DNA from: an uncultured Gammaproteobacteria bacterium
GTDB lineage: Bacteria > Patescibacteriota > Microgenomatia > Levybacterales > UBA12049
Reading direction: 5' to 3'
Length of the DNA: 64,000 nucleotides
Assembly: GCA_964503265.1 (NCBI GenBank)
Contig: CAZCYO010000002.1
Location: 2,604-66,603, forward strand
Under the pieces are notes generated by a model that saw nothing but the letters and a program-made list of their open reading frames with translations, was not told the origin of the DNA and did no database searches. Each line of letters begins with the position of its first letter. Position 1 is the first letter of the stretch. The position numbers and the translations under genes are program-made. Below, in pieces: positions 27,275 through 40,254 of this stretch.

Positions 27275-28231
27275 CTAGTCATGTACAGGTGGAGTAATAC
27301 CAAGGACGTTTAGTGAATAATCGAGTAGTTCTTTCATTTCTTGCCTTCTATTTTCACTATGTAATAGTACTCCTAAGATCCTGTGACCTTTATAGTCTAG
27401 ATAGGTAATGAGACACATTCCAGCTTCAGGTGTGTAGCCTGTCTTAACACCTTTGACTCCTGGGTAGGTAGTTAAAAGGTTCGTTTCGTTGTAGAGATCA
27501 TATCCTTTATGCAAATTTGTCGCTCCTATATGATGTTCGTATGTAGCTGAAACTTCAGCAAAAAGAGGGAACTTCTCAAGTGCATATTTCGTAATGACTA
27601 CTAAATCACTTACAGTTGTATATTGCATTCCATCCCCTTGAAGACCAGAGGGATTTGAAAATCGAGTATCCGTAAGCCCTAAAGCCGCTGCTTTATCATT
27701 CATCGCTTGAACAAATGCTGTACGCCCCTGAGGATAATTCGACGCAAAAACCTCAGCAGCGTCATTGCCTGAATTGAGAATAAGTCCGTAGAGTAGTTCT
27801 TCCTGAGATAGTACTTCTCCAGCAGATAACCCCATACTATCTTCTCCAACCAAGTTTTCTCCATGTACAATATATCTATCATCAGTTCGTCTATTCTCAA
27901 GTGCGATAATAGCGGCCATGACTTTCGTAAGTGATGCCATAGGGAGTTTTTCTTTCGTATTCTTCCCGTAGAGCACCTTATCGACTGTGAGATCATACAT
28001 AAGAGCTGAGCTGGCTGTGATCGAAGGTCCTTTTATTTCACTACCATAAACTGCTTCAAGCAGTGGTGACCAGAGATCAAGTAAGGTTACTTGTTTGTTC
28101 TTATCCATACTCAGATAATCAGGGAGGGGAGAAGTGAACATTTGTTCGATTGGGGAGTGGAAAGGGATAAAGATAAAGAGACTAAAAAGAGAAAGTGTCA
28201 GAATGAAGACGAAAAGCAGGTTTCTCGACAT
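27275..28231 (-). CDS. D-alanyl-D-alanine carboxypeptidase (low-MW PBP, DacA-like)
   Basis: Signal peptide; SLTK (SxxK), SGN (SxN), KTG motifs. Confidence 0.8.
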   Translation of the reverse strand: MSRNLLFVFILTLSLFSLFIFIPFHSPIEQMFTSPLPDYLSMDKNKQVTLLDLWSPLLEAVYGSEIKGPSITASSALMYDLTVDKVLYGKNTKEKLPMASLTKVMAAIIALENRRTDDRYIVHGENLVGEDSMGLSAGEVLSQEELLYGLILNSGNDAAEVFASNYPQGRTAFVQAMNDKAAALGLTDTRFSNPSGLQGDGMQYTTVSDLVVITKYALEKFPLFAEVSATYEHHIGATNLHKGYDLYNETNLLTTYPGVKGVKTGYTPEAGMCLITYLDYKGHRILGVLLHSENRRQEMKELLDYSLNVLGITPPVHD

Positions 28232-29246: not shown

Positions 29247-30020
29247 ATGAATATTCTTCAGGCGCTCATGATTTCTTTTGTTGAAGGAATCAGTGAGTTT
29301 TTACCTATATCTTCAACTGGACACCAAGTACTTGCATCACATATTCTCAGTATCCCTCAAACAGAATTTTTAAAAAGCTTTGAAATAATTATTCAACTCG
29401 GAGCCATCGCTGCAATCGTTTTTTTATATTGGAGAATATTGTTACAAGACAGAGAAGTATGGAAACGAATTATTGTCGCATTTATTCCAACTGCCGTTAT
29501 CGGATTTTTGTTGTATAAAATAATCAAAACAGTATTACTGGGTAATGAATGGGTCACTGTCCTTGCATTATTTATCGGGGGAATCATTCTTATTCTCATC
29601 GAGAAAAATCATGTCGAAAAAGAAATACACCACTCAGAAATTAAAGATATATCACTGAAAAATGCGTTCATAATCGGACTTATTCAGTCACTCTCTGTCA
29701 TCCCTGGAGTTTCACGTGCGGGTGCAACAATTATTGGCGGAATGATGCTTGGTACGAAAAGAAAAGCTGCGGTAGAGTTTTCATTCTTACTTGCAGTTCC
29801 CACGATGTTAGCAGCCACAGGACTTGATCTGCTAAAAAGTTCACATTCATTTACCTCAGATCAATTTCTGCTTCTTGCAATCGGACTTATAGGTTCATTT
29901 GTCACTGCGATCATAACAGTCAAATATTTAATTAGGTTTGTTCAGAATCATACTTTTGTAGGCTTTGGCATTTACCGTATGATAATTGCAGTAATCTATG
30001 CGATTATCTTTTTACGGTAA
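29247..30020 (+). CDS. uppP: undecaprenyl-diphosphatase
   Basis: N-terminal FVEGISEFLPISSTGHQVLA signature; polytopic. Confidence 0.9.
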   Translation: MNILQALMISFVEGISEFLPISSTGHQVLASHILSIPQTEFLKSFEIIIQLGAIAAIVFLYWRILLQDREVWKRIIVAFIPTAVIGFLLYKIIKTVLLGNEWVTVLALFIGGIILILIEKNHVEKEIHHSEIKDISLKNAFIIGLIQSLSVIPGVSRAGATIIGGMMLGTKRKAAVEFSFLLAVPTMLAATGLDLLKSSHSFTSDQFLLLAIGLIGSFVTAIITVKYLIRFVQNHTFVGFGIYRMIIAVIYAIIFLR

Positions 30021-30342
30021 GCTTATTTACCCCGCTTTATTTACGCTCATTATTCTTTTTCAGCAATTTTTCATGAAATTCTGCAGTTATTGACAAACAA
30101 TTTCTCGTCTTGTAAAGTAGTACTATACCACTATGGAGAAATGCTGCCCACATATCCGTAATTCTTTTGTCACCTCTGATGTTATACAACATGAGAGGTT
30201 TTTTTGTTCTTTTTTTACCCACGCCTACTTTCTAAAACAAACAGTTTTACATAAGTAGGGAATAGTAACTAATAATTTAGGCGGTCATAAACCCAGTGTA
30301 CACTGAGGTGAAGATCCCGAGCAAAGAAAGGGGGTGAAATAA

Positions 30343-30936
30343 ATGAATAAAATTAAATTAGCAACAAGTGTCGCATCTGCTGCTATGGTACTTTCTGCTT
30401 TTGTACCATCAGCGTTTGCTGCAAACTCAAATATCGTTGGAAACGGTGCGTTTAGTTGGAATACAGTTGTTATGAATTCTAATAAAATGACCGTTAAAAC
30501 CCAAAGCAATACAACAGTCGCAAATACTGTTGTTATGGCTAATACAAGTACTGGAGGAAATACTTCAGCACTTAATACAGGTGGTGGAAATGTAGTGACA
30601 TCAGGACCTGCTACGACTAACGTCGGTGTAGGAGTAGGTGGAAGTAGTAATACTATCGCTCCATCTATGTGTGGATGTGCTAACGCAAACGGAGGAAGTA
30701 ACGCAAATATCGTTGGAAATGGTGCTTTCTCAGTCAATGGAGTATTTGTTAACAAATCAAATACATCTGTCGTTTCTCAAAGTAACACAACATTAGCAGA
30801 TACTGGTGTGTTTACTAATACCACAACAGGTGGTAACAGTTCTGTCCTCAACACAGGAGGCGGAAGTTCTGTGATGTCTGGACCTGCAACGACAAACGTC
30901 GGAGTAGTAGTAACCGGTTCACAAAATTCTCAGTAA
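30343..30936 (+). CDS. secreted Asn/Thr/Gly-rich repeat protein (two about 95-aa repeats)
   Basis: Signal peptide; repeat signature NIVGNGAFS...QSNTT.A.T.V..NT.TGGN.S.LNTGGG..V.SGPATTNVGV; CGC linker. Confidence 0.6.
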   Translation: MNKIKLATSVASAAMVLSAFVPSAFAANSNIVGNGAFSWNTVVMNSNKMTVKTQSNTTVANTVVMANTSTGGNTSALNTGGGNVVTSGPATTNVGVGVGGSSNTIAPSMCGCANANGGSNANIVGNGAFSVNGVFVNKSNTSVVSQSNTTLADTGVFTNTTTGGNSSVLNTGGGSSVMSGPATTNVGVVVTGSQNSQ

Positions 30937-30955
30937 GCTGAGATCATAAAAAAAC

Positions 30956-30996
30956 AAATCCCCGCATTCTGAGTAATCTAAATGCGGGGATTTTGT
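30956..30996 (+). terminator. rho-independent terminator
   Basis: aaatccccgcat-loop-atgcggggattt then TTTT. Confidence 0.6.
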
Positions 30997-31078
30997 TAGC
31001 GAATAACTCTAAAAAAATAGATGGTATAAATTGATCTAGTTGACAAGAATTTGATAATTTTCCACAATAGATAGAGAT

Positions 31079-31246
31079 ATGGCTGTTAAAAAGAAATCAG
31101 TATCGAGTATTCCACTTTCAAGTCGAAAAATTGTTCTTCATCGTAGTTTAGAAAAGCCTGTTCATAATCTCATCGGATATTCTATACTGCTTATTCTAGC
31201 GATTGTAACACTTGCGATCATCTTCTCAATTCAACAAAGCGTTTAA
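31079..31246 (+). CDS. possible small membrane peptide (55 aa)
   Basis: Own translation MAVKKKSVSSIPLSSRKIVLHRSLEKPVHNLIGYSILLILAIVTLAIIFSIQQSV; weak SD. Confidence 0.2.
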   Translation: MAVKKKSVSSIPLSSRKIVLHRSLEKPVHNLIGYSILLILAIVTLAIIFSIQQSV

Positions 31247-31247
31247 T

Positions 31248-31805
31248 TTATTTTTCCTTCGCATAGATAAGCAATCTTTTCAGTGTAGTTCCTATCGGTG
31301 TACAAGTCTGCAAGATTAAGACATCTCCCGTAACCTCAGTGACTGCACTCACTTCAGTCGGCCAGACTTCCTTCATATCATACACTTCATAGGTATATTC
31401 TGTATCGTTACGAGTTAGAATAATATGATCATTTTTTTTCAATTCTCCTAGACGGAGAAATATCGTATTAAATCGTGTCACTTCCCATGGAAAACCACTT
31501 GAATGAGCAAATAAAAATATGACTCCTTTTTCTCCTGGAAGTGCTGTATCTTTGGCTTGTGCCACACCTTTTTGTAGTGCTGGTCTATAGATTGATTCAC
31601 TCCACGGATCGACTCCTGGGATGATTGGGGATTGTGCGTGAATTTTTGGAATCGTAATTGTCAAACCATGCAGTGTCGAGATCGGACGGAGCTGAGGAGG
31701 AAGAAGATACGCAAACAACAGGGGATAGAGGACAAAGGTAAAAAAACTGATAGAAGAGACAATCAGTATATTTCCGAGATAATAAAAAAATGATTTATTA
31801 AACAT
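31248..31805 (-). CDS. sortase (transpeptidase)
   Basis: N-terminal TM; His in FLFAHSSG, catalytic Cys in LILQTCTP (TLxTC), Arg in TLKRLL. Confidence 0.75.
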   Translation of the reverse strand: MFNKSFFYYLGNILIVSSISFFTFVLYPLLFAYLLPPQLRPISTLHGLTITIPKIHAQSPIIPGVDPWSESIYRPALQKGVAQAKDTALPGEKGVIFLFAHSSGFPWEVTRFNTIFLRLGELKKNDHIILTRNDTEYTYEVYDMKEVWPTEVSAVTEVTGDVLILQTCTPIGTTLKRLLIYAKEK

Positions 31806-31894
31806 ATATCGTATGTATGGTGACGATTGTACGTCTGGAGTGTGATTTTGTCAAAAAAAAAGCGACTCTCACATTGAGTCGCTTTCTATACTCT

Positions 31895-33013
31895 CTAGAG
31901 ACTAGAGGGTGAGTTCCCGGATCGCAGTCTTAAATAGACACCCATAAAGAGCATAAACATATTTCCAATGAGCAGCATGAATAACCAATTTCCACCTGTC
32001 GCTGGAAGAACTGATCCAGTCGTTGCACCAAGCACTGAGCCTCCACTTGATCCACCAGATGATGGATTTGATGATCCTCCTGGGTTACTCGTCGTAGTAG
32101 GAGGAGTTGTCGGTGGGTTAGATGGATTTGATGGTGTTTCTTTACATACACCCATCTGCACGGTATTTACATTCCCGACATTAGTAATAGTGGTCATAGC
32201 GAGAATAGAACCTGTCGTGATCGATACATTCCCGTTATTTCCATTTGCACTGTTTCCGCCAGTATTCAAATTATAGAGAACAGTATTAATAATCGTTTCA
32301 TTATTCAGTACATTGATCGAAACAAGGTTGTTAGTAGATATATTCGTTGTATTCGTAGACCCAGCTCCGTTTCCAATAATTTTTATTTTATAAGGATCTG
32401 ATTCAGTATGACCAAGTTGCACAACGTTGCTGTTATAGGTGTTAGAAATAGCGTTGTTAACAAAAACTGATCCAGTAGTAATAGACGTGTTGCCATTATT
32501 TCCATTTGCACTGTTTCCGCCAGTATTTATATTCCCAGTAACAGTATTCGTAATAGTTGCATTATTTGTGGTTGAGACTGCGGTTTGATTTGACGAAGCA
32601 ACACCGGCGGTGTTGGTTGAACCGCTGCCATTTCCACTTACAGTAATTGTGCCAGAGCCATTACTCCCGTCTGTTGAGCAGCCACATCCAGATATAACAG
32701 TATTTGTATTACCTGAGTTCGCAACTGAGGTAGTGCTTTGGGCATTTCCTGTTGAGACAGATGTAGTACCGTTATTTGCATTAGCACTGTTCCCGCCAGT
32801 ATTTGCATTTGAGGTGACGGCGTTCGTTGTTGTATTGGTATTAGATGACTGCACTGAAACCTGAGAGTTTGAGTTGGTGTTTACTTGATTGTCACTTGTC
32901 GAACCATTATCAGCGATTACGATATCATCAGCATGTGCTGGATGAACCACAACGCCACTTCCAAGAAGTGCAATTAATGGCACTAATAATAATATATATA
33001 TTTTTTGCTTCAT
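31895..33013 (-). CDS. LPXTG-anchored Asn/Thr/Gly-rich repeat surface protein
   Basis: Signal peptide; NTGGNSANxNNG repeats; C-terminal LPATGG then hydrophobic segment then RLRSGN. Confidence 0.75.
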   Translation of the reverse strand: MKQKIYILLLVPLIALLGSGVVVHPAHADDIVIADNGSTSDNQVNTNSNSQVSVQSSNTNTTTNAVTSNANTGGNSANANNGTTSVSTGNAQSTTSVANSGNTNTVISGCGCSTDGSNGSGTITVSGNGSGSTNTAGVASSNQTAVSTTNNATITNTVTGNINTGGNSANGNNGNTSITTGSVFVNNAISNTYNSNVVQLGHTESDPYKIKIIGNGAGSTNTTNISTNNLVSINVLNNETIINTVLYNLNTGGNSANGNNGNVSITTGSILAMTTITNVGNVNTVQMGVCKETPSNPSNPPTTPPTTTSNPGGSSNPSSGGSSGGSVLGATTGSVLPATGGNWLFMLLIGNMFMLFMGVYLRLRSGNSPSSL

Positions 33014-33073
33014 AACACGAACAATACTGATTGTTTGAATAAACTTACGAGGGCAATAGTAAGTTATTTTCGT

Positions 33074-35305
33074 TTACTTTCCGCTGGACAGGCGTGGAAG
33101 GATAACTTTTTTTCCAATAACTGCAAGTGCAATGATTGGAAGAGCCAGAATGAACCAAGCAAGATTGATTGATAACGCACTTGTATTTGCAAAGATTGTA
33201 TTTAAGTCAGATGACTCACCAAGAACATAGACACCGGTTTTAGATGAATTAGTTTTATTTGCAGCTGCTAGTACTTCCTGTGATGTTGATGCAGCTGTTC
33301 CAGCTCGTGCTATGATGCCTTGTGTCGTAGATACTGGCTGAGTCGTCGTCGTCGGTGCTGGCGTGACAGTTACTTGAGCTGGCGCAGTAACAGTTGATTG
33401 AGCTGAAGCTGAATGATTCTGTGCTCCATCTTCTTTCGTATGGCCTGGGGTAATAAGATTTCCAACCCATGAGCCAAAGACATTAACAACTGTAACAACT
33501 AATTTTCCTTTTCCTACGATATTGTTATTTACGAAGTTTACTAAATTAGCGATAACATTTGCATTACCTGTTTTAACAGTACTACTGCCACCAGTATTTT
33601 CATTTGCTGTGTTACCACCGGTGTTTGCAGAAAGATTAATAGTATTAGTGATATGCGCATCGTTGTTTTGTTCTGTATTCGATGAGTTGTTTGTTGTATC
33701 AGAAGCATTATTGTTAGATCCAGCTCCATTGCCTGTGTTCGTCGTGTCCCCATTAGATGCTGTGACAGTTCCATTCTCATCGACTGTAAACTCTGTGCCT
33801 TCACTGCCAGCCATGTCAGATCCATCTGGAGAGCCAACTAATTTACCTACCCATTGACCAGCACGGTTCACAAGTACTAACCACCATGTTTTTCCACTAT
33901 CGACATTCGAATTTGCGACGTTTAGGGTAGTTGCTTTTACATTTGCATTACCCGAGGTAACAGTGTTACTTCCATCAGTGTTAGCACTTGTCGAGTTATC
34001 ACCAGTATTTGCATCGAAGGTTAAGTTATTATCGATGATTGCGTTATTTGATTGACTTGTATTATTTGTATTGTTTCCAGTGGTTGAAGCATTATTATTT
34101 GAACCTGCACCATTGCCACTGTTTTTTGTTGTAGATGCACTTGGAGAGTCTGTTTCAGGTGCGACGAGTTCGTTTGGAATAATGATATCTCCCTCTAAGT
34201 TACCATAGATATTAATCGTGTTGTACTGTACGTTTCCACCGTCAATGTTGTTATTTGCGAAGGTTAAAACGTTTGCATCAACGTTTGCGTTCCCTGTACG
34301 AACAGTCGTACTTCCACCTGTGTTATCAGATGCATCATTGTAGCCACTATTTGATGAGAGAGTCAGCTCTGATCCGACAGTCGCGTTGTTAGATTGTGAT
34401 GTATTATCACTACTGTTAGCCGTTGTTGATGCGTTATTGTTTGAACCTGCGCCATTACCAGTATTCGTTGCAGAGCCAGTACTCCCAGGGCATCCTGAAA
34501 TACAATGTGATGCAACATTTTGTGGAGTAAGGACGATATCTCCATGATAGTCATCGTTAACGTTAAATTCAGCAACTTGTACACCATCAAGATTTGTATT
34601 TACTGAGGTAATAACAGTACCACTCGTATTTGCATCTCCAGTAGTTACTGTCGTATTACCATTCGTATTATATGAAGCAGAGTTATTTCCACTATCTGTT
34701 GCGAGTTGAAGTGAATTTCCTACAGTTGCGTTATTTGTCTGTGCTGTATTTGCTGAGTCAGATACTGTTGCTGAGCTACTATTATTCGATCCAGCACCGT
34801 TTCCTGTATTAGCAGCAGAGTCATCACCTGTCGTGCAAGCAGAGCAGGAACTACTACCATTTCCATTTGCAGTATTATTATTCGCATTTGTCGTGATCGT
34901 ACCACTATTCGTAGTATTTCCTGTTGCGACAGTAGTATTGCCATTATTACCATTTGAAGTTGTTCCTGTGTCGCCAGTTGAACCTGCCTGTTGTGCTGCT
35001 GCATTTTGCGCTTGTGCAGGAGTTGGAGTAGGGGTTTCACCTGGTTTTAACGGCTGATCTGGTTGGTCAGGGGTTACAGGCGCTTGAGTAGGAGCAGCAG
35101 TTGGGGCTGTCGTTGATGGTTTTTGTGGCGCTTGTGGTGCAGAAGGAACCTGTGGAGCAGGAGCTGAGGTAACTTGTGCTTGTGGTGCGACAGCAGCATC
35201 AGCTACAGGAGCATCATCAGCCAAAGCTGGTGTAATATTTACGGTTAATAATGCAATCACTAAGAGTGATGCAATAGTTTTTTTAATTGTTTCTAAATAA
35301 TTCAT
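33074..35305 (-). CDS. large secreted Asn/Thr/Gly-rich tandem-repeat surface protein with C-terminal TM anchor
   Basis: 743 aa; about five 115-aa repeats (NTGNGAGSNNxAS...SNNATVG...); Pro/Ala/Gln-rich linker after signal peptide; C-terminal TM plus KK tail, no LPXTG. Confidence 0.7.
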   Translation of the reverse strand: MNYLETIKKTIASLLVIALLTVNITPALADDAPVADAAVAPQAQVTSAPAPQVPSAPQAPQKPSTTAPTAAPTQAPVTPDQPDQPLKPGETPTPTPAQAQNAAAQQAGSTGDTGTTSNGNNGNTTVATGNTTNSGTITTNANNNTANGNGSSSCSACTTGDDSAANTGNGAGSNNSSSATVSDSANTAQTNNATVGNSLQLATDSGNNSASYNTNGNTTVTTGDANTSGTVITSVNTNLDGVQVAEFNVNDDYHGDIVLTPQNVASHCISGCPGSTGSATNTGNGAGSNNNASTTANSSDNTSQSNNATVGSELTLSSNSGYNDASDNTGGSTTVRTGNANVDANVLTFANNNIDGGNVQYNTINIYGNLEGDIIIPNELVAPETDSPSASTTKNSGNGAGSNNNASTTGNNTNNTSQSNNAIIDNNLTFDANTGDNSTSANTDGSNTVTSGNANVKATTLNVANSNVDSGKTWWLVLVNRAGQWVGKLVGSPDGSDMAGSEGTEFTVDENGTVTASNGDTTNTGNGAGSNNNASDTTNNSSNTEQNNDAHITNTINLSANTGGNTANENTGGSSTVKTGNANVIANLVNFVNNNIVGKGKLVVTVVNVFGSWVGNLITPGHTKEDGAQNHSASAQSTVTAPAQVTVTPAPTTTTQPVSTTQGIIARAGTAASTSQEVLAAANKTNSSKTGVYVLGESSDLNTIFANTSALSINLAWFILALPIIALAVIGKKVILPRLSSGK

Positions 35306-35313
35306 ATTTATAT

Positions 35314-35362
35314 CTAATTTCTAATTTCTAATTTCTAATTTCTAATTTCTAATTTCTAATTT
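35314..35362. repeat. heptanucleotide tandem repeat (CTAATTT)x7, i.e. (AATTAGA)7 on the coding strand of the downstream gene
   Basis: Seven perfect units located 9 to 57 nt upstream of ATG (35305) of the 743-aa surface protein. Confidence 0.9.
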
Positions 35363-35431
35363 GATTATTATGAGGACACGAGAGTACTTTTACCGAAGTG
35401 CTGATAAAGCACTCTCGTTTGTCCTACATAA

Positions 35432-36682
35432 TTACATTGACATGAAAGCCATCCATGCTGCCCACATACCTGAAAAGTTAGATGTGAAACTAACATTACC
35501 AAGACCTGGGAGTGCGATAGCGCCATTACCAACGTTGTTTACGTTACCACCGTTTGCGATAGTAACTTCAGTGAGAGCTCCACCTGAAGTAACAGCTGGA
35601 TCTGTGATCATTCCGTAGACTGATCCTGTGTTTGCACTTGCGTCATTACCACCAGTTGCTGCTGTTGGAATAGCGAAGTTACTTAACAGTTCACTGTTTG
35701 TTGTTGAAACAGCAAGGATATTATTATTGTTAGCGTTAATAGCTGAGGCTGAGCCTGCGCCATTTCCGAGAACTTTATAAAGATCTCCTGTTGTTGTGCA
35801 ACCACAATCATTTAATGAAGCAACGTTGAAGTTAGGTTCATTAACGATGTGTGCTTTTGCAATTGCAGGTCCTGAAGTAACGGCGACGTTACCACCAGTG
35901 TTTGCACTTGCGTTGTTTCCTCCAGTAGCTGCTGTAGAGAACACAGAGTTCAAGATAACAGCACTGTTAGATTGTCCAAGTGAAACTGTTTTATTATCAT
36001 TAAGATTAGCTGAGTTTTGTGAACCCGCGCCGTTTCCACTGATAAGAACAGTGTCTCCTGAAAGTCCTGCAACACCTCCGACTGAACCAATCTGAGCTGA
36101 GTTGACGTTAGCTGCGTTAGCAACTGAAACTTGTGAAGCTGCTCCACCTGCAGTAACAGTAACGTTACCACCAGTGTTTGCACTTGCGTTGTTTCCGCCA
36201 GTTGATGCATCAGATGTGATTAAATTAGAGATAGCTGCATTGTTTGTTTGTCCAAGTGCTGTTGTATTGTTGTGATTAGAGTTAACTGCGTTAGCTGAGC
36301 CAGCGCCGTTATCAAGAATTCCAACAGTATTTGCACCACCTTGACAGTTACAATTTCCATTAACCAATGCTGAATTTGTATTTGCAGCGTTAGTGACAGA
36401 AACTCCAGAGATAGCATTTCCTGATGTAACAGTAGTGTTTCCTCCAGTGTTCGCACTTGCATTGTTTCCTCCAGTTGTTGCAGTTGATACAACAGTGTTA
36501 GAAATGTTTGCATTATTGCTTTGTGATACAGATGTAACGTTGTTGTTATTGGTATTGACCTGGTTTTGTGAACCAGCTCCGTTTCCAGCAACTACGTCAG
36601 TGTTAGCAAAGGCCATTGGTGCTAAGGCATTGAGTAAGACTGCTCCGGTTGCGATAGCTGTAGCGATTTTTTTATTTAACAT
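35432..36682 (-). CDS. secreted Asn/Thr/Gly-rich repeat protein (paralog of 30343, 31895, 33074)
   Basis: Signal peptide MLNKKIATAIATGAVLLNALAPMAFA; repeats GNGAGSQN...ANTGGN; CxC linkers. Confidence 0.65.
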   Translation of the reverse strand: MLNKKIATAIATGAVLLNALAPMAFANTDVVAGNGAGSQNQVNTNNNNVTSVSQSNNANISNTVVSTATTGGNNASANTGGNTTVTSGNAISGVSVTNAANTNSALVNGNCNCQGGANTVGILDNGAGSANAVNSNHNNTTALGQTNNAAISNLITSDASTGGNNASANTGGNVTVTAGGAASQVSVANAANVNSAQIGSVGGVAGLSGDTVLISGNGAGSQNSANLNDNKTVSLGQSNSAVILNSVFSTAATGGNNASANTGGNVAVTSGPAIAKAHIVNEPNFNVASLNDCGCTTTGDLYKVLGNGAGSASAINANNNNILAVSTTNSELLSNFAIPTAATGGNDASANTGSVYGMITDPAVTSGGALTEVTIANGGNVNNVGNGAIALPGLGNVSFTSNFSGMWAAWMAFMSM

Positions 36683-37121
36683 ATATTTTTATTTTTCACC
36701 CCCTCTCTTTTGTAGGATCTCTTAATTAAAAGAGCACTTCATTTTTTTTCCGTTTTTATCTAAATGCCTGAGGCCTTAGATAAAAAAACGGAAATTTCCC
36801 GCATCTAATTATTTAGATAAGAGAAATCTCCGTTTTTGAGATATGTACTGTATTTATTTTAAAAACTATATTCATATTTTGTATTACCTAATATATCTTG
36901 TATTTATTATGATTGTGTAAGAATACTAACTTCGTAATAATATTCTTACAACTATTTTGTAAACAAAAAAAGGCACCATTATATGAATACAATTTTCATA
37001 TAAAGATGCCTCCGGGAGCGGTCAGCTCTTTTATTTACTCTTTACTCTGTAGTGGTAAAGATGTGTTCTAAACACTAAATATAGATATTAGTGAAATCTT
37101 TGTCAATAGGGAAAATCTTGA

Positions 37122-37292
37122 TTAATTTTTTTCCACTTTTTGTTGAGTTTTACGGATGTTTCGCTCGGTGATTTGGATAATTTTAAAATCTTGGATTTGA
37201 ATTTCGACACTACCCCAGCCACGAATATTTTGAATCGCGTCAGCAATTTCGGTTAACAGCTTAGAGTTTAATTTTTTAGTCGAATAATCCAT
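37122..37292 (-). CDS. small DUF2292/YezD-like protein (56 aa)
   Basis: Own translation MDYSTKKLNSKLLTEIADAIQNIRGWGSVEIQIQDFKIIQITERNIRKTQQKVEKN; GSVEIxIQDxKIxQIxE pattern (from memory). Confidence 0.3.
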   Translation of the reverse strand: MDYSTKKLNSKLLTEIADAIQNIRGWGSVEIQIQDFKIIQITERNIRKTQQKVEKN

Positions 37293-37330
37293 AACTTTAC
37301 TTTTCGTCTATACGCCAGGCAGAGGATTAT

Positions 37331-38104
37331 TTAGCGAAGATTTGAAATCTTCACTTCTTGAATTTTTGCAGTTGGATCAGTAACATCTCCTACTCGAAGA
37401 ATGAAATCATGATCAGTATCTTCAACAGTAAATCCAACACGTGTATTCGTCGTAGATACTGGTTGGACATCTACTGGATCATTGTGAATTTTTGGATCAT
37501 AGAGTTTACCATCATTATTTTTCTTAAGACGGAAATAATTTCGTGAATTAATTTGAACTGGTTTGGTGAAATTATTTGTTAATTCTAAGTTAGCGATAAG
37601 AACATTTTTACCAACTGTGGTATTTGCAATTTTTCCTTGAATAATAATTTGATCACGAAGTTCAAGATTTTGAACAGTAAGCTTAATTGTACTAATTTGT
37701 TTTCCAGTTCCGTCTTTTAACGGAAAAGAGAAATCTTTTTTAAGACTTTCAGATGCCATTGGCTTACGAAGTTCGACTCGTCCATCACTTGTCGTTTTTG
37801 TCTCAGTTAAATTCGTTGGCTTTGAGAGAACTTTCTTTAAGCCAAATGCAACAAGAAGAATAAAAATAATTCCCACTATAATAAACGGAAGATATTTAGA
37901 ATCTTTAATAAATCGCTTAAACTTTCTCATTTGTAACCGAGAGTTAGTGGTAGCTTCTGATGCACTTGATGAGAATTGTGACGAAGCTGAGTTAATGATT
38001 TGATGAAGTGTTGTTATTTTTTCTTTTATTTTCTCAATTGCTGGAGAAAAGTCTTCGGAAGATGGAAGTGCGAATGATAGTTGAAATGTTTTCATTTTTT
38101 TCAA
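37331..38104 (-). CDS. single-pass membrane protein with extracytoplasmic beta-rich domain (DUF4352-like)
   Basis: 257 aa; TM YLPFIIVGIIFILLVAFGL. Confidence 0.45.
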   Translation of the reverse strand: MKKMKTFQLSFALPSSEDFSPAIEKIKEKITTLHQIINSASSQFSSSASEATTNSRLQMRKFKRFIKDSKYLPFIIVGIIFILLVAFGLKKVLSKPTNLTETKTTSDGRVELRKPMASESLKKDFSFPLKDGTGKQISTIKLTVQNLELRDQIIIQGKIANTTVGKNVLIANLELTNNFTKPVQINSRNYFRLKKNNDGKLYDPKIHNDPVDVQPVSTTNTRVGFTVEDTDHDFILRVGDVTDPTAKIQEVKISNLR

Positions 38105-38430
38105 TAAAAAAGCTCTGCGGGCAGAGCATTTGTATTTGGGATATTAGCAATAGGAAAACCTAGTGTCAAGAGGTAAATCTAGAGTATTTTTGTTGTAAAA
38201 ATAATAGATATTTTAAATAATAAACCTATAGCGAAACACGTAAATATATTAGTTCACTCGGACTCATTTTATCTATACACGAATTATTCGAAGTATTCAG
38301 TTACGACGATGAGAAACAACTAAAGCCAGAAGACGAGTAATATGATGGGTAGACTAACATAATTACTCATTTTGTGCTATACTATACAAAGATAAACAGC
38401 TAGGGAAGAAGGCTGTTTTTTTATATAAAT

Positions 38431-40254
38431 ATGGATCCTATAACTACAGACAAAATAAGAAATATTGCTGTCATCGCTCACGTCGATCATGGTAAGACGA
38501 CGCTTGTCGATTTCATGTTAAAGCAATCTCATACCTTTCGCGACAACGAAGCAGAAATGACGCAGACTACCATTCTTGACTCAAATCCATTAGAGCGAGA
38601 ACGTGGGATTACCATTCTGGCTAAAAATACTGCTATTTCTTATAAAGGACATAAAATTAACATTATCGATACGCCAGGTCACGCTGACTTCTCAGGTGAA
38701 GTAGAGCGCACACTTAATATGGCTGACGGTGCACTTCTTATTATCGATGCACAGGAAGGCCCAATGCCACAGACTAAATTCGTTCTAAAAAAAGCTCTTG
38801 AACTCGGGCTTAAAATTATCGTCGTTATTAATAAAATTGATAAACAGCTCGCAAATATTCCACAAACACTTGACCATACCAATGATTTATTCCTCGAACT
38901 CGCTACAGATCCAGAACAACTTAATTTTCAAGTTCTCTATGCAATTGGACGTGAAGGAAAAGCAGCACTAACCGCAGAAGGCGTAGCAGCTACAGACAGT
39001 CTCACTGTTATTTTAGATGAAATTTTAAATCATATCCAAGCTCCAACAGTAAATGAAGGTGCATTTAAGATGCTCGTCACATCACTTGATTTTGATACAC
39101 ATAAAGGGAAACATATTATTGGGAAAATTTTAAGTGATAAAGCACAAGTCGGTCAATCAGTTGTTCTATTAAAAGACGAAGGGAAAATAGTTAACGCAAA
39201 AATTGATCATATTTACCTTGCAAATGGTCTGAAAAAAGTTGAAGTCCAAGAAGCGATTGCTGGAGATATCGTCGAAGTAACAGGTATCGATAATGCTGAT
39301 ATCGGCGATACGTTAACCTCATCTCAGGATTTAACACCACTCCCACGAATTGCAATTGAGGAACCAACGATTAAAATCGCACTTGGTGCAAATACGTCAC
39401 CTTTTGCAGGACGTGAAGGCAAGTTTACTAACTCTCGACAGATTTTAGAGAGACTTGAAAAAGAACTTGAAACAAATGTAAGTCTGAGACTGGAAACACG
39501 CGATGATGGATTTATTATCTCAGGCAGGGGAGAACTTCATCTTTCAGTCCTTATCGAAACACTCCGTCGTGAAGGGTATGAATTCCAAGTCGCTAAACCT
39601 GAAGTAATCACAAAGATCATTGATGGTGTTGAAATGGAACCAGTTGAAGATCTTATTATCGATGTTCCAGATGAATTCGTTGGCCAGGTCACAGAAGAAG
39701 TAGGAAAAAGAAAAGGGCAAATGAAAAATATGGAAGCTGATGGAAATGGAAATACACGTCTTGAATACACTATTGCCTCTAAAGCGCTTATCGGTATTCG
39801 AAGTATGTTACTGACAAGAACCAAAGGAACAGTCGTCATCAACACACTTTTTGATTCATTTAAACCAGTTACCCCTCCAATTTCTCGAATTAGAAATGGC
39901 GTACTTATCGCATCAGAAGGTGGAAACGCACTTTCTTATGGCCTACATAACGCACAAGAGCGTGGTGTTACGTTCGTTCTTCCTGGAACGAAGGTCTATG
40001 AAGGAATGATCGTTGGACTTCATACACGCAGTGAAGATATTGAAGTCAATGTAACAAAAGAAAAGAAACAGACAAACATGCGTGCCTCAAGTTCAGATGT
40101 ATCACTTGGAGCACTCACCCCACCAGTTCAAATGAGTTTAGAGCAATGCCTAGATTTTCTAGAAGATGATGAGTTACTTGAAGTCACACCAGATAATCTT
40201 CGCCTTAGAAAACGCTTCCTAACAAGACAAGATCGTGTTAGACAAAGTAGATAG
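38431..40254 (+). CDS. typA: translational GTPase BipA/TypA
   Basis: AIIAHVDHGKTTLVD G1, DTPGHADF G3, NKID G4; 607 aa. Confidence 0.9.
   Translation: MDPITTDKIRNIAVIAHVDHGKTTLVDFMLKQSHTFRDNEAEMTQTTILDSNPLERERGITILAKNTAISYKGHKINIIDTPGHADFSGEVERTLNMADGALLIIDAQEGPMPQTKFVLKKALELGLKIIVVINKIDKQLANIPQTLDHTNDLFLELATDPEQLNFQVLYAIGREGKAALTAEGVAATDSLTVILDEILNHIQAPTVNEGAFKMLVTSLDFDTHKGKHIIGKILSDKAQVGQSVVLLKDEGKIVNAKIDHIYLANGLKKVEVQEAIAGDIVEVTGIDNADIGDTLTSSQDLTPLPRIAIEEPTIKIALGANTSPFAGREGKFTNSRQILERLEKELETNVSLRLETRDDGFIISGRGELHLSVLIETLRREGYEFQVAKPEVITKIIDGVEMEPVEDLIIDVPDEFVGQVTEEVGKRKGQMKNMEADGNGNTRLEYTIASKALIGIRSMLLTRTKGTVVINTLFDSFKPVTPPISRIRNGVLIASEGGNALSYGLHNAQERGVTFVLPGTKVYEGMIVGLHTRSEDIEVNVTKEKKQTNMRASSSDVSLGALTPPVQMSLEQCLDFLEDDELLEVTPDNLRLRKRFLTRQDRVRQSR

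Follow-up and report, generated by a model that had tools for sequence, protein, structure and literature searches.

A window of 64,000 nucleotides (positions 2,604 to 66,603 of contig CAZCYO010000002.1, assembly GCA_964503265.1), assigned by GTDB to the Levybacterales of the Patescibacteriota, harbors at window positions 30343-38104 a unit of seven genes (~7.8 kb) that encodes four paralogous secreted repeat proteins, designated here A (197 aa), B (372 aa), C (743 aa) and D (416 aa), together with a sortase, a DUF2292 protein and a membrane protein of 257 amino acids (up257). We propose, at slightly less than even confidence, that this cassette builds a multi-component, beta-rich surface coat or short fibrils, of which D would be the abundant building block, held to the cell wall by B and to the membrane by C. 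The initial annotation had described a surface-protein island with four secreted paralogous repeat proteins and a sortase encoded among them; the four open reading frames (ORFs) were found where it had placed them, each with a signal peptide, and a hidden Markov model (HMM) of the repeat located 13 units in them. The interval that it had delimited leaves out DUF2292, the 257-aa membrane protein and several conserved RNA elements of the same unit.

The order of the cassette is a transmembrane protein of ~250 aa, DUF2292 (~60 aa), D (~410 aa), C (~740 aa), B (~380 aa) and the sortase, and it was identical in the four distant D-homologue contigs that were examined first. A scan of one genome per GTDB species revealed 28 further loci, a number that is a lower bound and skewed to close relatives because the search was keyed only on the signal-peptide motif of a 14-sequence alignment. 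In a scripted comparison the order was identical across 34 loci wherever the contig was long enough, with DUF2292 present in 33 of them, up257 in 32, C in 30 and the sortase in 23. The contigs with the cassette belong to Levybacteria, Chisholmbacteria (both placed in the Microgenomates group by the NCBI taxonomy) and relatives; the homologues come from metagenome-assembled genomes (MAGs) of Levy-, Gottesman-, Ames-, Woese- and Chisholmbacteria and of the 'Microgenomates group', and all are labelled 'hypothetical'. In our reading the cassette is an operon-like unit of the Microgenomates (OP11), a branch of the Patescibacteria.

Each paralogue of the window finds its best match in its own syntenic orthologue (identities of 42-50% for C, 39-44% for D and 38-41% for B). 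With the repeat HMM, four repeats were counted in 29 of 31 D orthologues, three in all 24 B orthologues, four or five in C and two in A. Within one protein the repeats resemble each other somewhat more closely (43-64% identity in D) than positional orthologues do (37-49%), the diagonal lying barely above the off-diagonal, which points to some concerted evolution, with the copy number and the order of the repeats unchanged. The fixed gene order in the 34 contigs, the fixed repeat numbers and the syntenic best matches therefore speak for a conserved cassette and against the diversification of an island by repeat shuffling that had been suggested initially. No further paralogue was found with tblastn in the rest of the 64-kb window.

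The repeat units that A, B, C and D have in common are 90-115 aa long and rich in Asn, Thr and Gly. An HMM built from D-type units found two units in A, three in B, four in C and four in D (domain E-values of 6e-12 to 1e-23) and none in the neighbouring proteins. Motif scans and MAFFT alignment yielded the signature GNGAGS..N…Q.NNA.I.N.V…TGGN.A..NTGG…V.TG.A…N..N.N common to the units, with 9 invariant columns in the alignment of all 13, and CxC or CxxC motifs between some of the units; the shared signature and the CxC linkers had already been recognized in the initial annotation. The units are spaced by ~91 aa in A, B and D and by 114-128 aa in C, and the cysteines of the CxC motifs are at least 90% conserved in D homologues. 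Mature D consists to 69% of Asn, Thr, Ser, Gly and Ala and has 3.8% charged residues, as compared with 35% and 20%, respectively, in the other long ORFs of the window.

Pfam-A and NCBIfam contained no match to the repeat in A-D at E ≤ 1, Pfam none to the 13 single units at E ≤ 10, and sequence-profile searches of the PDB with 117 D and 118 C homologues revealed nothing relevant. Among 1.84 billion representatives the family comprises ~2,850 clusters at 50% identity (E ≤ 1e-3). In the literature a description of the cassette or of the repeat was not found, and the one Microgenomates genome paper that names a sortase is silent on its substrates. Judged by these comparisons, the repeat family is undescribed in every library searched, and the absence of matches in Pfam, in NCBIfam, among PDB profiles and in the structural search against the PDB (see below) agrees with the uncharacterised family postulated at the outset.

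The AlphaFold2 (AF2) model of D is all-beta with four equivalent layers (predicted local distance difference test score, pLDDT, 75.8; predicted template modeling score, pTM, 0.71), and its DSSP pattern, which has isolated bridges in the turns, recurs identically from repeat to repeat. When the models of D and C were compared with the PDB by Foldseek, no significant match was obtained (best E = 0.06, TM-scores < 0.1). With few exceptions the top neighbours, none of them significant, were beta-solenoids, namely Ag43, FapC, CsgA, an ice-binding protein, TPS domains, pectate lyases and other enzymes that degrade polysaccharides.

Mean-field direct coupling analysis (DCA) of ~775 repeat units, repeated in three-unit models, revealed an antiparallel ladder (i+j of ~105-108) in which unit positions 24-49 couple with positions 57-81, and each repeat is therefore expected to be a very long strand-turn-strand unit with arms of ~25 residues. 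The GNG loop couples to the TGGN/NTGG turn, the first arm carries Q, N, A, I, N and V in alternation on one of its faces, and the same N/Q/G columns are invariant across all four repeats of D, a pattern that looks like the ladders of stacked solenoid or cross-beta architectures. The all-beta layers of the AF2 model and the invariant N/Q/G columns make the designation 'beta-solenoid-like', used in the initial annotation, plausible; it is unproven, as a significant structural match was not found. A weaker second register in the DCA (i+j of ~90-92; positions 26-34 with 57-64, for example 28-64, 26-64 and 34-57) may reflect inter-repeat or inter-subunit contacts.

D (35432..36682, minus strand), the proposed major subunit, is a secreted protein with four repeats, a mature mass of ~37 kDa and no anchor. 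Its signal peptide, which by inspection ends with MAFA before NT, is conserved in 117 homologues, and at least 232 full-length homologues are known, nearly all of 400-430 aa and with 40-58% identity. At their C-terminus (35432-35520 in the window) the D homologues carry a conserved LPG and, after it, ~20 residues that form a short amphipathic helix rich in Trp and Phe, which could be a docking element or a cap; they have neither a transmembrane segment nor a basic tail. D is acidic (pI 4.05) and contains few cysteines. No Lys was found to be conserved to 90% or more in D (117 sequences) or in C (118 sequences).

The codon usage of D differs from that of its surroundings. In the window the fraction of NNC in the two-fold NNY families is 0.61 for D and 0.27 for all long ORFs, Asn is encoded by AAC in 45 of 74 cases as compared with 297 of 906 in the background (Fisher p = 3e-6), and G-ending four-fold codons are avoided, with a GC content at third codon positions (GC3) equal to that of the background. 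The NNC fraction of D exceeded the local background in all 21 loci compared (mean 0.47 vs. 0.30, Wilcoxon 1e-6), and the bias of D was higher than that of C in 19 of the 21, C and B being near background. A preference for C-ending two-fold codons at unchanged GC3 is the classical signature of translational selection. The codon usage thus indicates, from sequence, that D is a highly expressed protein, and since very abundant proteins bear such a signature, D stands out as a strong candidate for a main envelope component.

D is also the member of the cassette that is surrounded by conserved RNA and control elements, all on the minus strand. The intergenic region upstream of D (36683-37121, ~440 bp) is conserved in 25 loci. 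It contains a predicted sigma-70-type promoter for the D transcript, TTGACA-17-TATATT (37078..37106), which agrees with the consensus in 11 of 12 positions. The TATA hexamer is conserved in most aligned leaders, and TTGACA is visible in the 9-10 loci from which a long enough extract was available; the remaining extracts begin at CAAG, directly after the stop codon of DUF2292, with which the -35 hexamer would overlap in these loci.

Within the leader two elements resemble terminators. The first, E1 (36966..37026), consists of the invariant GCUGACCGC(NNN)CGGAGGCAU, a block of 21 nt, followed by a long variable hairpin and the U-tract GGUGCCUUUUUU, and is in its layout intrinsic-terminator-like; a regular expression found it in 23 of 25 leaders, and the six that were folded gave a minimum free energy (MFE) of -20 to -37 kcal/mol. 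The second, E2 (36782..36834), identified by a terminator scan ~100 nt upstream of the start of D, has the form AACGGAG-hairpin-CUCCGUUUUUUU with the closing side CUCCGU7 and is present in all 25 leaders; RNAalifold predicted 19 pairs, 12 of them with compensatory changes. The motif ACGGA(G) occurs three times in the D leader, and a strong Shine-Dalgarno sequence, GAGGGGGUGA, precedes the start codon. Judged by its sequence, the leader resembles an attenuator, a riboswitch or a small RNA of a kind not described so far.

Directly 3' of the D stop codon lies a conserved RNA hairpin (35381..35428) with a stem of ~21-25 bp and the apical loop AGCACUUCGG, of which AGCACUUC(G/A)G is conserved; a U-tract does not follow. 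The hairpin was found once after D in each of the loci L001-L033 (for example L005:9232-9292), with an MFE of -26 to -40 kcal/mol in every locus. A covariance model (R1), for which the structure was specified by hand, gave exactly one match per locus, always after D (29 matches in 596 kb), and the matches include loci that were outside the set from which the model was built. In the alignment of the hairpins 81% of the cells pair, whereas slid controls reach 37-53%. Double-sided changes are seen in 18 of the 21 pairs, and the observed values were reached in none of 500 shuffles. Of the 21 loci with the loop motif, 20 have it in this hairpin and nowhere else; a second match to GCACTTCGG in the window (61226) was dismissed as chance, lying inside a coding sequence and without a hairpin. 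The hairpin could be an mRNA 3' stabiliser, an attenuator or the binding site of a specific factor. A cmscan of positions 30000-38500 (E ≤ 1) found no Rfam family for the D leader or for the D 3' hairpin; its three matches, with E-values of 0.4-0.8, were to unrelated sRNA models and sited elsewhere.

Between this hairpin and the start of C there is a perfect array of 7.1 copies of AATTAGA (35313..35362; Tandem Repeats Finder, 100% matches, score 100). A periodicity of 7 nt is significant in the equivalent spacer of 11 of 25 loci, where it is degenerate. The array may tune the level or the phase of C expression.

B (31895..33013, minus strand), the proposed wall anchor, has a signal peptide, three repeats, a P/T/S/G-rich spacer and the C-terminal end LPATGG-NWLFMLLIGNMFMLFMGVY-LRLRSGNSP, the canonical tripartite end of a sortase substrate (motif, hydrophobic segment, positively charged tail), in agreement with the LPATGG-transmembrane-RLRS end reported initially for one of the proteins. 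LP[ARVSIQT]TG followed by a transmembrane segment and a (L/F)R(L/M/F) tail, most often YLRLRSGRSPG, was found in 22 of 24 syntenic B orthologues. Neither Pfam nor NCBIfam returned a Gram_pos_anchor HMM match for B, whose assignment as a sorting substrate is based on the motif. The window contains no other LPxTG-type ORF.

The sortase (31248..31805, minus strand; 185 aa, with an N-terminal transmembrane anchor) is the last co-directional gene of the cassette and lies between A and B. It belongs to PF04203 (1e-23, 83.8 bits vs. a cut-off of 26.6) and to TIGR01076 (67.1 vs. 39.35 bits), and its catalytic residues, the His in FAHSS, the Cys in LQTC and the Arg in LKRLL, align with those of 2xwg, as expected from the sortase assignment made before. 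It scores below every class-specific NCBIfam cut-off, the best being that of class C (NF033745, 63.7 vs. 160 bits), and among solved structures its nearest relatives, at no better than E = 3e-7, are sortases of class C and related LPXTG transpeptidases. The N-terminal transmembrane helix and a short linker leave no room for a lid before the first catalytic strand, and the DPW of the protein follows the strand ITIPKI, which is not the position of a lid. With a score below the cut-off and without the DP(F/W/Y) lid, the enzyme was not assigned to the pilus-polymerising class C sortases. The sortase is syntenic in 23 loci (49-63% identity) and, as only one substrate is encoded next to it, its behaviour is closer to that of a dedicated anchoring enzyme.

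C (33074..35305, minus strand), the proposed membrane anchor or base, has a signal peptide, a disordered N-terminal extension of ~100 residues rich in Pro, Ala and Thr, four repeats with an additional hydrophobic beta-hairpin after each, a disordered stalk, and a C-terminal end in which INLAW is followed by a transmembrane segment and a K/R tail. This end is present in 29 of 30 C orthologues (the sequence of L011 contains Ns). At least 486 homologues of 700-810 aa and 40-50% identity were found. In the AF2 model (pTM 0.62), which is all-beta, the repeat cores have a pLDDT above 90 and residues 715-741 form a helix; residues 27-112 and 629-707, the latter being the stalk of ~80 residues, are disordered. 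The INLAW end (33074-33160) is laid out like a sorting signal, with a motif followed by a transmembrane and a basic segment, and it starts with 'NxxW-L', similar to the stretch after LPxTG in B. The INLAW end could be a degenerate or alternative processing signal.

A (30343..30936, plus strand) is a secreted paralogue of 197 aa with two repeats, divergently transcribed beside the sortase. Its best match is a syntenic 199-aa protein in L003, and A appears to be a loosely linked minor component of the cassette. Like that of D, the N-termini of A, B and C have a basic n-region, a hydrophobic core and an AxA-type site; by inspection the Sec signal peptides end with SAFA before AN in A, with PAHA before DD in B and with PALA before DD in C.

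Two further proteins are encoded upstream of D. The first gene of the cassette, up257 (37331..38104, minus strand), encodes a single-pass membrane protein with a cytoplasmic N-terminus, one transmembrane helix and an extracellular beta-rich domain of ~160 aa, for which there is only a sub-threshold match to DUF4352 (0.0096). Orthologues are found in the same position in 32 loci (28-40% identity); the best matches to syntenic orthologues have 34-45% identity. Of the at least 1554 members of the family, every one is labelled 'hypothetical' and lacks a Pfam domain. The second gene (37122..37292, minus strand) encodes a cytoplasmic YezD-like DUF2292 protein of 56 aa (PF10055, 3.3e-6, 27.0 bits vs. 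22), which immediately precedes D in 33 of 34 loci, has an invariant core GSVE..Q....Q...R.I.KT at identities of 36-69% across loci, and is recorded as PF10055 also on the syntenic genes of four distant contigs. Sequence-profile searches of the PDB with up257 and DUF2292 yielded nothing meaningful. Such a fixed genomic context is rare for DUF2292 and could be of help in assigning its function.

From these features we propose the following mechanism. All four repeat proteins would be exported by Sec and their signal peptides cleaved. The cassette sortase would cut B at LPATG and link it to peptidoglycan, its P/T/S/G-rich spacer spanning the wall, and C would be kept in the membrane by the INLAW-transmembrane-basic segment and project from it on the disordered stalk. 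D, with its codon bias, its own promoter, a strong ribosome binding site and a 3' hairpin, would be made in far larger amounts than the other paralogues and, perhaps together with A, be retained via the homologous repeats of B and C; D would also self-associate. The association is envisaged as repeat-on-repeat beta contacts via the invariant Asn, Gln and Gly residues, possibly locked by the CxC cysteines, so that the anchored paralogues would serve as base or nucleator and D as the bulk material. The synthesis of D would be controlled separately via the conserved leader of ~390 nt with its two terminator-like hairpins, and the 3' hairpin would limit or stabilise the transcript, C, B and the sortase being made at lower levels. 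The structure would probably serve the architecture of the envelope or the attachment of these ultra-small, probably episymbiotic cells.

Several observations weigh against this proposal. The co-assembly, the type of polymer and the biological role of the four proteins are inferred, and the codon bias points to the abundance of D and not to a structural role. An A-like gene is adjacent, on the opposite strand, in only ~7 of 34 loci. In the DCA the offset-0 coupling between repeats has a z of 4.7-4.8 for adjacent and of 4.5 for non-adjacent repeats and, because non-adjacent repeats couple as strongly as adjacent ones, reflects shared ancestry. That the D 3' hairpin functions as a terminator is uncertain because of the missing U-tract, and the model leaves DUF2292 and the 257-aa membrane protein without a role.

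The cassette resembles known systems in its logic and not by homology. In Streptomyces the long chaplins ChpA-C are sortase-anchored and the short chaplins ChpD-H are secreted and thought to assemble on the long ones. There, as here, a set of paralogues shares one beta-forming module and some copies are anchored by sortase, others secreted without an anchor. The chaplin module differs in being hydrophobic and of 40 aa as compared with the repeat of 90-115 aa, and a Pfam match to chaplins was not found at E ≤ 1; moreover, the cassette has with C a third, membrane-anchored paralogue, its genes are clustered with the sortase, and its host belongs to the Candidate Phyla Radiation (CPR) and is not an actinomycete.

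With the curli and Fap systems the cassette shares imperfect strand-turn-strand repeats rich in Gln, Asn and Gly and conserved Q/N ladders, and also the logic of a cell-associated paralogue (CsgB) that templates an abundant secreted one (CsgA); CsgA and FapC are among the top Foldseek neighbours, which are not significant. The unit of the cassette is ~4 times longer, anchoring is by sortase and a transmembrane helix instead of at an outer membrane, and genes for outer-membrane secretion of the CsgG/E/F type are not among the cassette members. Homology to curli was considered and rejected: hhalign of the repeat profile with E. coli CsgA gave a probability of 0.25%, and there was no match to Curlin_rpt (PF07012), either with the whole proteins at E ≤ 1 or with single units at E ≤ 10. 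Indirect amyloid-like features of D are the Q/N/G-rich repeats, the low charge and the strand-turn-strand unit.

A strong stem-loop after a putative major subunit and before minor or anchoring genes is also known from the pap operon of E. coli, in which a hairpin for differential stability follows the major pilin gene papA. The two hairpins are not homologous, and that of the cassette differs by its conserved apical loop AGCACUUCGG, which suggests a specific binding partner. A narrower version of our proposal, which we regard as rather improbable, is an unrecognised surface-polymer system found throughout the Microgenomates, in which the nearly uncharged, Asn/Thr/Gly-rich D, with a giant coil of ~91 residues, polymerises as a cross-beta or solenoid coat or fibre templated by B and C, with the leader as a dedicated and so far undescribed riboregulator and the 3' hairpin as an element recognised by a protein or an RNA, perhaps with the involvement of DUF2292.

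The alternative that survives best, although we consider it unlikely, is that A-D are independent monomeric adhesins or spacers of the stalk type, which differ in the way in which they are retained and do not co-assemble, the common repeat reflecting common descent. Many LPXTG proteins of Gram-positive bacteria are indeed monomeric repeat rods, the long disordered stalk regions of C are typical of projecting adhesins, and A is loosely linked to the cassette. Gram-positive repeat proteins such as the G5-E rods of SasG/Aap and the Rib/SHIRT stalks share with B, which lies next to a sortase, the layout of signal peptide, tandem beta-rich repeats, a wall-spanning spacer rich in Pro, Thr and Ser, LPxTG, transmembrane segment and basic tail. 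They differ in that their repeat number varies between strains, whereas that of the cassette is constant, and in that the cassette has an undescribed repeat and combines unanchored and membrane-anchored paralogues in a fixed operon. Independent adhesins would leave unexplained why conservation of the unanchored paralogue is strictly tied to that of two anchored ones, in a fixed order and with fixed repeat numbers, and why D alone has a codon bias for high expression and its own regulatory RNA elements; a released, almost uncharged beta protein of 37 kDa would also be an odd soluble adhesin.

Distinctly less probable is a specific form of the coat, in which D is the surface-layer (S-layer) protein of Microgenomates and forms a two-dimensional crystalline lattice with B and C as its partners for attachment to wall and membrane. 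D would fit as a secreted protein of ~40 kDa with a high codon bias, a length constant within the clade, a pI of 4.05 and few cysteines, and cryo-electron microscopy by Luef and colleagues in 2015 is said to have revealed an S-layer-like outer layer on ultra-small bacteria from groundwater. The composition of D is, however, unlike that of typical S-layer proteins, its ladder-like invariant Asn repeats are more typical of fibrous beta-solenoid or amyloid-type proteins, Pfam and NCBIfam revealed no SLH, CWB2 or other S-layer anchoring domain in A-D, and no literature was found that links Microgenomates, S-layers and sortase.

That the flat, Thr/Asn-rich beta surfaces have a non-structural function in the binding of ice, minerals or polysaccharides, with the cassette as a display system, is very hard to credit. 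Regular beta faces rich in Thr and Asn are typical of ice-binding proteins, and the ice-binding and beta-helical antifreeze proteins 5uyt and 3p4g as well as polysaccharide lyases and hydrolases are among the Foldseek neighbours; none of these is significant, Pfam gave no ice-binding or lyase match, the invariant residues alternate with Ala, Ile and Val on one face, suggesting a buried or packing face, and the cassette MAGs come, according to their record titles, from several different sources including groundwater and soil. No more credible is a sortase-polymerised pilus in which D would form the shaft and B the base, with A or C as an accessory pilin, in spite of the clustering of the genes with a dedicated sortase and of class C enzymes among the nearest solved sortases: the LPxTG is found in B and is lacking in A, C and D, neither D nor C has a conserved Lys that could be the nucleophile, there is no Pfam match to Cna-B, pilin or Gram_pos_anchor, and the sortase, a genuine family member with His, Cys and Arg like the enzymes of classes C and D, differs from these by its scores below the class cut-offs, its short length, its missing lid and its one adjacent substrate. 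Membership of the sortase-assembled pilins was rejected on these grounds, and with it the designation 'pilin-like' of the initial annotation in its sortase-polymerised sense, as a sorting signal is present on one of four proteins.

The proposed coat- or fibril-forming cassette lies among housekeeping and cell-wall genes. Directly beside gene A are those for a D-Ala-D-Ala carboxypeptidase of the Peptidase_S11 family (27275-28231, minus strand) and for UppP/BacA (29247-30020, plus strand), with an EEP-family protein encoded between these two; BipA is also encoded in the flanks. The GC content across the region is unremarkable. A phage origin was rejected, viral contigs being without relatives of the repeat proteins. 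Judged from its gene content, the locus is an ordinary chromosomal context and not a mobile island.

In two loci genes for DsbA and DsbB are found directly upstream of the cassette (L005:5011-6159 and L006:5332-6486), which fits a requirement of the repeat proteins for disulfide bonds at their conserved CxC motifs. Also beside the cassette are genes for a 477-aa protein with RTX calcium-binding repeats in L001 (16258-17691, minus strand) and for a multi-domain glycosyltransferase of 990 aa in L006 (13620-16592, plus strand). The cassette MAGs of L010, L011, L013, L014, L017, L019, L021, L023-L025, L027, L028 and L030-L032 were deposited as 'uncultured Gammaproteobacteria bacterium', which looks like a placeholder or a wrong taxonomy. 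Other odd labels are Acidiferrales and Methylomirabilota for two cassette loci, Saccharimonadales for one D homologue and Parcubacteria group for one match to the repeat family.

The CPR or Patescibacteria represent a large share of bacterial diversity, and the composition of their envelopes and their attachment to hosts and surfaces are almost unknown. Sortase-linked repeat surface proteins are a known kind of system; the architecture of the cassette and its RNA elements are new. The conservation of the cassette spans the lineages of Levy-, Chisholm-, Gottesman-, Ames- and Woesebacteria at least; as handles it offers a 37-kDa protein (D), a sortase with one substrate, three conserved RNA structures and four unannotated protein families, comprising the repeat family and that of the 257-aa membrane protein, which could enter domain databases. 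If the narrower version of our proposal is true, with D as a templated cross-beta or solenoid polymer, the structure would be the first to be defined in the envelope of a CPR lineage and also its first functional-amyloid-like system, and DUF2292 would gain a function.

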